The notes under the pieces: generated by a model
What the model was told of the DNA's origin: nothing
Databases searched by the model: none
The model's input: only the letters and a program-made list of their open reading frames with translations
Part shown: piece by piece, positions 61,193 to 61,282 of the stretch
Layout of the letters: each line of letters opens with the position of its first letter
Position numbering within the stretch: position 1 is the stretch's first letter
Translations under genes and position numbers: made by a program
Assembly: GCF_988243305.1 (NCBI RefSeq)
Contig: NZ_OZ547136.1
Length of the DNA: 64,000 nucleotides
Strand: one strand, 5' to 3'

Positions 61193-61282
61193 TTAATACT
61201 ACAGAGTGGCTATAAGGATGTTAGCCACTCTCTTACCCTACATCCTCAATAACAAAAATAGCCTTCCTCTAAAGGTGGCATC

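Follow-up and report, generated by a model that had tools for sequence, protein, structure and literature searches.

A conserved hairpin without a U-tract between tnaA and tnaB of Escherichia coli probably protects the 3′ end of the tnaCA mRNA

The REP sequence located between malE and malF is said to act as an intercistronic mRNA stabiliser and to be responsible for differential expression within its operon, as Newbury et al. reportedly described in 1987. The puf hairpins of Rhodobacter are also intercistronic mRNA stabilisers. Other intergenic regions are cut: those processed by RNase P in polycistronic mRNAs, reportedly catalogued by Li and Altman in 2003, are said to be those of tna, his, rbs and secG. 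In the clostridial cip-cel operons the phenomenon is referred to as "selective RNA processing and stabilisation" (SRPS; PMC4423207, PMC10311766). A related class, described by Dar & Sorek 2018 (PMC6061677), consists of stable stem-loops which lack a U-tract, are located directly upstream of precise steady-state RNA 3′ ends and protect these against PNPase and RNase II; the sequence downstream shows a mild bias of C over G.

The E. coli tna operon shows unequal expression of this kind. tnaB mRNA is low relative to that of tnaA and tnaC (PMC9045200) and, in the account which the same source gives of Li & Altman 2003, the tnaA-tnaB intergenic region is processed by RNase P, leading to tnaB mRNA degradation. 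On Northern blots (Singh et al. 2020, PMC7186457), probes for tnaC, tnaA and tnaB all reveal an RNA of 3.1 kb, and an RNA of 1.9 kb is strong with the tnaC and tnaA probes only. In the one strain background used (relA1 spoT1), the half-life of the 1.9-kb RNA is about 13 min and that of the 3.1-kb RNA about 6 min, and inactivation of RNase E stabilises both (PMC7186457). The tnaC-tnaA spacer, further upstream, is known from the literature to bind L4 and Spot42. The processed spacer, the short stable tnaCA RNA and, in public tables, the mapped RNA 3′ end are largely in the literature already.

The work presented here concerns a hairpin in the tnaA-tnaB spacer. The DNA analysed, called the window below, is a stretch of 64,000 nt from contig NZ_OZ547136.1 (GCF_988243305.1) whose final 4.5 kb carry E. 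coli tnaCAB and the start of mdtL. Its relevant features are the following:

59482..59556, plus strand: tnaC leader peptide ORF, 24 codons, at the start of the tnaCAB transcript, as read from the sequence
59777..61192, plus strand: tnaA, encoding tryptophanase (471 aa), with its TAA stop at 61190-61192 and a translation ending in KLKEV
61193..61202, plus strand: linker from the tnaA stop to the stem, 10 nt, the final 3 nt polymorphic and with indels
61203..61231, plus strand: hairpin, with its 5′ arm at 61203-61212, loop at 61213-61221 and 3′ arm at 61222-61231; proposed 3′-exonuclease barrier of the tnaCA mRNA
61235..61236, plus strand: mapped steady-state RNA 3′ end (MG1655 3890188 / 3890189), 4-5 nt past the stem, from Term-seq and TRS
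61232..61282, plus strand: unstructured spacer 3′ of the hairpin; candidate site for endonucleolytic cleavage or Rho loading
about 61273-61279, plus strand: tnaB Shine-Dalgarno sequence, inside the preceding spacer and partly paired in a weak hairpin at 61261-61279
61283..62530, plus strand: tnaB, encoding the low-affinity tryptophan permease (415 aa), the downstream cistron with lower expression
62537..62565, plus strand: second U-less hairpin, with a 12-bp stem and a 5-nt loop, 6 nt past the tnaB stop, which marks the 3′ end of the full-length 3.1-kb transcript

The 171 nt spanning the tnaA-tnaB junction were found in 5,388 of 5,426 complete E. coli genomes, always with tnaA and tnaB annotations, and the tnaC-to-tnaA spacing of 295 nt is the same as for tnaC of NC_000913.3. 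In the tnaC-tnaA spacer (59417-59446 region) the window strain differs from MG1655, for example TTAATGGATATTGCAG versus TTAATCGGTATAGCAG around the published 3′ end 3888703.

The original prediction, made from the sequence, was of a perfect repeat at 61203-61231 forming a 9-bp stem with an 11-nt loop. The repeat and its position stand but the dimensions do not: because one more A-U pair closes, the hairpin (AGAGTGGCTA-TAAGGATGT-TAGCCACTCT, in the order 5′ arm, loop, 3′ arm) has a stem of 10 bp and a loop of 9 nt. A local repeat search returned two arms of 10 nt, 100% complementary, with 9 nt between them. Five of the ten pairs are G-C, and a loop of 9 nt is among the longer ones for intrinsic terminators. 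The predicted distances are close to those observed, since the stem starts at the 11th nucleotide after the tnaA stop, that is, after 10 nt where 11 had been given, and its end is separated from the tnaB ATG (61283) by 51 nt where about 50 had been given. The U-tract said to be lacking is indeed absent: in the tail, CUCUUACC, only 3 of 8 nt are U, and no terminator is called there by the scan.

Calculation of the folding energy, which had been suggested together with the prediction, gave a strong value of -15.3 kcal/mol, compared to -5.0 +/- 2.1 in dinucleotide shuffles (z = -5.0; matched by none of 200 shuffles), and the hairpin still forms when folded in a 131-nt context. The 64-kb window includes seven distinct perfect hairpins of at least 10 bp with loops of 3-12 nt, versus 0.45 expected from shuffles, and two of the seven come after tnaA and tnaB, respectively. 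The E. coli repeat is a perfect one whose minus strand folds just as well (-14.4 kcal/mol), so that assignment to a strand rests on the other genera and on RNA data. At the hairpin site, a scan for terminator and promoter consensus sequences gave neither a terminator call nor a promoter-like site and a tRNA/tmRNA scan (ARAGORN) found nothing tRNA-like; an Rfam scan gave no match overlapping 61150-61300, even at E <= 10. The hairpin is absent from the annotation of NC_000913.3 (MG1655). It is not a REP sequence, not a canonical terminator, since the U run after the stem is absent, and not an Rfam family. Elsewhere in the spacer, the weak local hairpin at 61261-61279 (GCC..CCU....AGG.GGC), which pairs part of the tnaB Shine-Dalgarno sequence, is invariant in six Escherichia sequences and may contribute to low TnaB translation.

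Of 5,403 E. coli genomes, 5,390 carry the identical 30-nt hairpin, whereas a 45-nt stretch including its flanks is found at an identity of at least 99% in only 3,924. When six Escherichia sequences are aligned, their substitutions and indels cluster in the 3 nt preceding the stem, in the 4-5 nt following it and, for E. whittamii, in the loop. In window coordinates, 61200-61202 and 61232-61236 are hot spots of substitutions and single-nucleotide indels and the remaining spacer up to tnaB is almost invariant; the variable 3′ patch (61232-61236) coincides with the mapped RNA 3′ end.

The hairpin is present at a median of one place per genome across the 5,403 E. coli genomes. A dispersed repeat of the REP/BIME type was considered following the detection of three places in the pig isolate E. 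coli CUPF09 (NZ_CP182142.1, 1-4300), and was ruled out: the hairpin is single-copy, and the additional places stem from IS insertions into the tna locus. In this isolate the locus is disrupted, with an ISEcp1-blaCTX-M-55 unit in place of tnaA up to the hairpin and the IS5-family element ISKpn26 in the spacer, directly upstream of tnaB. A fragment of the spacer also occurs in up to seven copies in a few E. coli genomes, for which mobilisation by ISEcp1 is one possibility.

Two further features of the Escherichia spacer were noted. The loop sequence AGGAUGU (61215-61221) is perfectly complementary to ACAUCCU (61240-61246), 9 nt past the stem (shuffle p about 0.02), and another E. coli lineage retains this pairing with one G.U. 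In E. whittamii the loop differs (GAGGGAAAA) and there is instead a GGGAAA/UUUCCC match 2 nt past the stem, which could be a compensated version of the pairing. The resulting H-type pseudoknot would be possible only in read-through RNA, since the partner lies beyond the mapped 3′ end. That it provides a tRNA-like feature for RNase P, making the hairpin an active and possibly regulated switch between tnaCAB and a stable tnaCA plus an unstable tnaB RNA, strikes us as very unlikely. The loop AUG also opens a small ORF (61218-61286) of 22 codons (MLATLLPYILNNKNSLPLKVAS), whose TGA overlaps the tnaB ATG as ATGA. The frame is intact in four of the six Escherichia sequences, shifted in E. coli E69 and lacks its AUG in E. 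whittamii, and we have rejected it as probably not coding.

Conservation in other tna operons had been proposed as a further check of the hairpin, and it extends well beyond Escherichia. We collected 80 tnaA loci from different species, located the downstream permease gene in each and folded 77 of them. In the first 55 nt past the tnaA stop, the median z relative to shuffles is -4.8, and z is below -2 in 91% of the 77 loci. The median start of the best single hairpin is 11 nt past the tnaA stop (IQR 8-12). Hairpins at this offset occur behind tnaA in about 70 species. A few spacers are differently organised: those of Serratia sp. DD3, Serratia oryzae and an Enterobacteriaceae MAG (L017, L022 and L029 of our set) are 213-390 nt long, compared to about 90-117 nt, and in Serratia sp. 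DD3 the strongest hairpin is located 161 nt past the tnaA stop and not at about 11 nt.

In the Enterobacteriaceae the stem covaries. The 25 hairpins aligned (from Escherichia, Citrobacter, Atlantibacter, Leclercia, Silvania, Kluyvera, Enterobacter, Yokenella and others) share the core UGGCUA...UAGCCA. Paired cells make up 85% of the alignment, against 68% in shuffles, and both sides have changed in 12 of 14 stem pairs: examples are G-C to A-U at the pair preceding UGG and C-G to U-A via a U.G intermediate in Kluyvera. The covariation score is 0.50, compared to 0.19 in shuffles, none of 500 of which reaches 0.50, and shifting the 3′ partners by 1-3 columns lowers it to 0.07-0.17. Core pairs include nine G.U and three A.C, an excess which modestly favours an RNA on the plus strand. 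The loop, and hence the spacing of the half-sites, ranges from 3 to 9 nt between genera. Judged by these comparisons, the hairpin is the product of selection on structure and not of chance.

What follows the stem differs between families. A hairpin with at least 6 T in the next 8 nt is found at 70% of 40 loci from Pasteurellaceae, Vibrionaceae, Aeromonas and Cardiobacterium and at 7% of 30 Enterobacterales loci. To judge from the sequences, the enterobacterial element looks like a terminator minus its U-tract, in a lineage where a TnaB orthologue (>65% identical) is co-transcribed. Base composition past the stem is also lineage-specific: the 51 nt include 16 C and 5 G in Escherichia, and most other Enterobacteriaceae spacers are AT-rich with no such skew.

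RNA data place a 3′ end directly after the hairpin. In Term-seq data (Adams et al. 2021, PMC7815308, Suppl. file 1), the "primary" tnaA 3′ end is at MG1655 3890188 on the plus strand, and two of three condition tabs list it, scored 6,193 and 51,162, while the third has no entry; judged by position in the file, the two scored tabs are LB OD 0.4 and LB OD 2.0. The printed context of this end finishes with ...UAGCCACUCUCUUA (PMC7815308). Conversion of coordinates (the tnaA stop, 3890145, being 61192) puts 3890188 at 61235 in the window, 4 nt past the stem. A TRS re-analysis (PMC10687069, Suppl. Data 2) lists a terminus which covers 3890184-3890204 and is dominated by position 3890189, with R = 0.984 and an adjusted p of 0 in three libraries, labelled "Alternative primary in TU" for tnaA. 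R is defined as L/(L+D), that is, 1 minus the local read-through of 3′-end reads. There is no terminus near 3890155, the 5′ base of the stem, in the TRS listing, and the TERMITe supplements include no tnaA entry.

The transcript sizes are in agreement. If the tna start site is located 319 nt upstream of tnaA, as we take it to be, the distance from it to 61235 is 1.78 kb and that to 62568 is 3.11 kb, which fits the 1.9- and 3.1-kb RNAs. The discontinuity in RNA across the hairpin which the original prediction proposed to look for is thus found in published data, in the form of 3′ ends at 61235/61236 and of a longer-lived 1.9-kb RNA devoid of tnaB. The tnaB 3′ end, labelled "Primary" in the TRS data, is at 3891521 (window 62568), 3 nt past the stem of the second hairpin; both cistrons, tnaA and tnaB, therefore end in the same kind of structure, a U-less hairpin. 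BCM data (Adams et al., Suppl. file 2) show Rho regions at 3888562, in the tnaC leader, and at 3891617, in mdtL just downstream of the second hairpin, with none called between them, including at the tnaA-tnaB junction.

The hairpin is probably an intercistronic stem-loop on the sense tnaCAB RNA which protects the 3′ end of a shortened tnaCA mRNA, so that this outlives the full-length RNA. The suggestion in the original prediction that it acts as an mRNA stabiliser or processing site for differential tnaA/tnaB expression is thus supported by folding, conservation and the mapped RNA end. RNA polymerase would mostly read through the hairpin, because there is no U-tract, and the 3.1-kb full-length RNA would then be shortened from its 3′ side. 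Entry could be provided by an endonuclease cutting either the single-stranded spacer or tnaB (processing of the spacer by RNase P and decay dependent on RNase E have been reported), or by termination further downstream. The 3′-to-5′ exonucleases PNPase and RNase II would halt a few nucleotides short of the 10-bp stem, leaving a tnaC-tnaA mRNA of about 1.78 kb which ends at 61235. Since the tnaCA mRNA outlives the full-length RNA, more tryptophanase than permease would be made from one promoter. We infer that it is the stem itself which stops the exonucleases and thereby sets the TnaA:TnaB ratio; poor translation initiation may also contribute to low TnaB.

The position of the stem is consistent with such a role. 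In view of the known size of a ribosome footprint, the 10-nt linker would correspond approximately to the stretch under a terminating ribosome, and the conserved offset of 8-12 nt would place the stem just outside a ribosome on the tnaA stop, so that it would not be melted by translation. Our literature search, whose coverage did not extend to Deeley & Yanofsky 1981, Martin et al. 1998 and Li & Altman 2003, found no mutational test of the stem, no statement or test of its being responsible and no description of its covariation across genera.

Other events could generate the same 3′ end. It is possible, though we consider it doubtful, that Rho terminates transcription in the untranslated spacer or in a poorly translated early part of tnaB and that the heterogeneous ends are then trimmed to the hairpin, as in the model of Dar & Sorek; the role of the hairpin would be the same as in protection following cleavage, the generating event being Rho and not an endonuclease. 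The stable U-less stem-loop, the precise end just past it and the 16 C versus 5 G in the 51 nt downstream all match Rho-dependent 3′ ends, and at the end of the operon, too, a U-less hairpin precedes a Rho region called in mdtL. However, the C-over-G skew is confined to Escherichia, the spacers of other Enterobacteriaceae being AT-rich, and the BCM data include no Rho region between 3888562 and 3891617. The latter is weak evidence against Rho, because BCM calls can miss sites near strongly transcribed genes, as Adams et al. warn. Alternatively, the hairpin itself might be a partial terminator (an attenuator) which stops some polymerases, with or without NusA/NusG, so that fewer reach tnaB, 61235 being the true termination point. 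An end 4-5 nt past the stem, as at intrinsic terminators, a TRS R of 0.98, equal to that of strong terminators, and the hairpins with U-tracts (at least 6 T in 8) at the same place in 70% of the 40 Pasteurellaceae, Vibrionaceae, Aeromonas and Cardiobacterium loci would all be accounted for, but trimming by exonucleases gives the same 3′-end geometry and tnaB is expressed from the tna promoter within the 3.1-kb RNA. Moreover, U-less hairpins are inefficient intrinsic terminators for E. coli RNA polymerase, the E. coli element has only 3 U in the 8 nt past its stem and fails the terminator scan, and a U-tract is found in only 7% of the 30 Enterobacterales loci, a loss which speaks against termination by the E. 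coli stem itself. We regard attenuation as unlikely.

A more direct role for RNase P, with the stem mimicking the stack of a tRNA acceptor and T-arm and a cut at its 5′ base (61202/61203) separating tnaA from tnaB and exposing the tnaB RNA to decay, appears quite unlikely. An RNase P model substrate need consist of no more than a stem of at least 7 bp and a single-stranded 3′ tail, and the spacer is reported, in the second-hand account cited above, to be processed by RNase P with degradation of tnaB mRNA. The abundant 3′ end, however, lies past the hairpin and not before it, with no TRS terminus near 3890155; there is no RCCA after the stem, whose 3′ tail, CUCUUACCC, varies between strains without a conserved CCA, the spacer being at its most variable in these 4-5 nt; and ARAGORN detects no tRNA-like fold. 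The RNase P cut may lie elsewhere in the spacer, which would agree with protection by the stem. It is scarcely credible that the repeat serves as a palindromic DNA site for a dimeric protein, or that it arose by chance and has no RNA function. The repeat is perfect in E. coli and its minus strand folds equally well, so that sequence alone cannot separate DNA from RNA there, but a dimeric DNA-binding site would not tolerate a half-site spacing of 3-9 nt between genera, the arms show compensatory substitutions with G.U intermediates on the plus strand, only 0.45 such repeats are expected in the window, there is no promoter-like site and an RNA 3′ end maps to the hairpin. Other factors were also considered and set aside: the RNase III site reported for the operon is inside tnaA (3889207), away from the hairpin, and a 10-bp stem is short for RNase III; Spot42 and L4 target the tnaC-tnaA spacer and not the tnaA-tnaB spacer; and the sole link to ProQ that we found is indirect, via GlmY/GlmZ. 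A TRIC-seq preprint shows only a contact map of tnaA.

Protection by the stem, whose role is inferred, would explain how abundant tryptophanase and scarce permease are obtained from the one promoter of a classic E. coli operon, and would also account for the two tna transcripts seen on Northern blots. Across genera, the element provides an example of a terminator-shaped structure whose stem is kept and whose U-tract is lacking where the downstream gene is co-transcribed. When indole or tryptophan pathways are engineered, or reporters placed after tnaA, the stem should be kept or removed deliberately.

Compared to the systems described above, the hairpin is an ordinary example of a known way to obtain more enzyme than transporter from one operon. 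Like the malE-malF, puf and clostridial SRPS elements, it is found where a highly expressed upstream cistron ends, the RNA of the upstream segment is longer-lived than the full-length RNA (13 versus 6 min) and the downstream gene is less expressed. In contrast to the malE-malF REP, it is a unique sequence, present in a single copy per genome, and forms one simple 10-bp stem which is neither a REP nor a BIME. The RNase P-processed regions include the same tna spacer but, in the account of PMC9045200, what is reported there is a cleavage, whereas the hairpin, in its mapped role, delimits the stable upstream product.

In Pasteurellaceae, Vibrionaceae, Aeromonas and Cardiobacterium, intrinsic terminators occupy the equivalent position, 7-12 nt past the tnaA stop and followed by a permease gene, and are of similar stability (median -17.5 versus -18.4 kcal/mol). 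Unlike the hairpin described here, they carry a U-tract (at least 6 T in 8 at 70% of loci), which is absent in 93% of the Enterobacterales relatives, and the permease encoded downstream is only about 38% identical to TnaB. In structure, end position and missing U-tract the hairpin resembles the class of Dar & Sorek: the tna stem-loop is stable, has no U-tract and is followed within a few nucleotides by a precise 3′ end. An excess of C over G follows the stem in Escherichia, with no skew in most other Enterobacteriaceae. Unlike the members of that class, the tna element is internal to an operon, the next cistron starting 51 nt further on, and one BCM data set has no Rho call at the junction; an endonuclease may instead supply the entry point.
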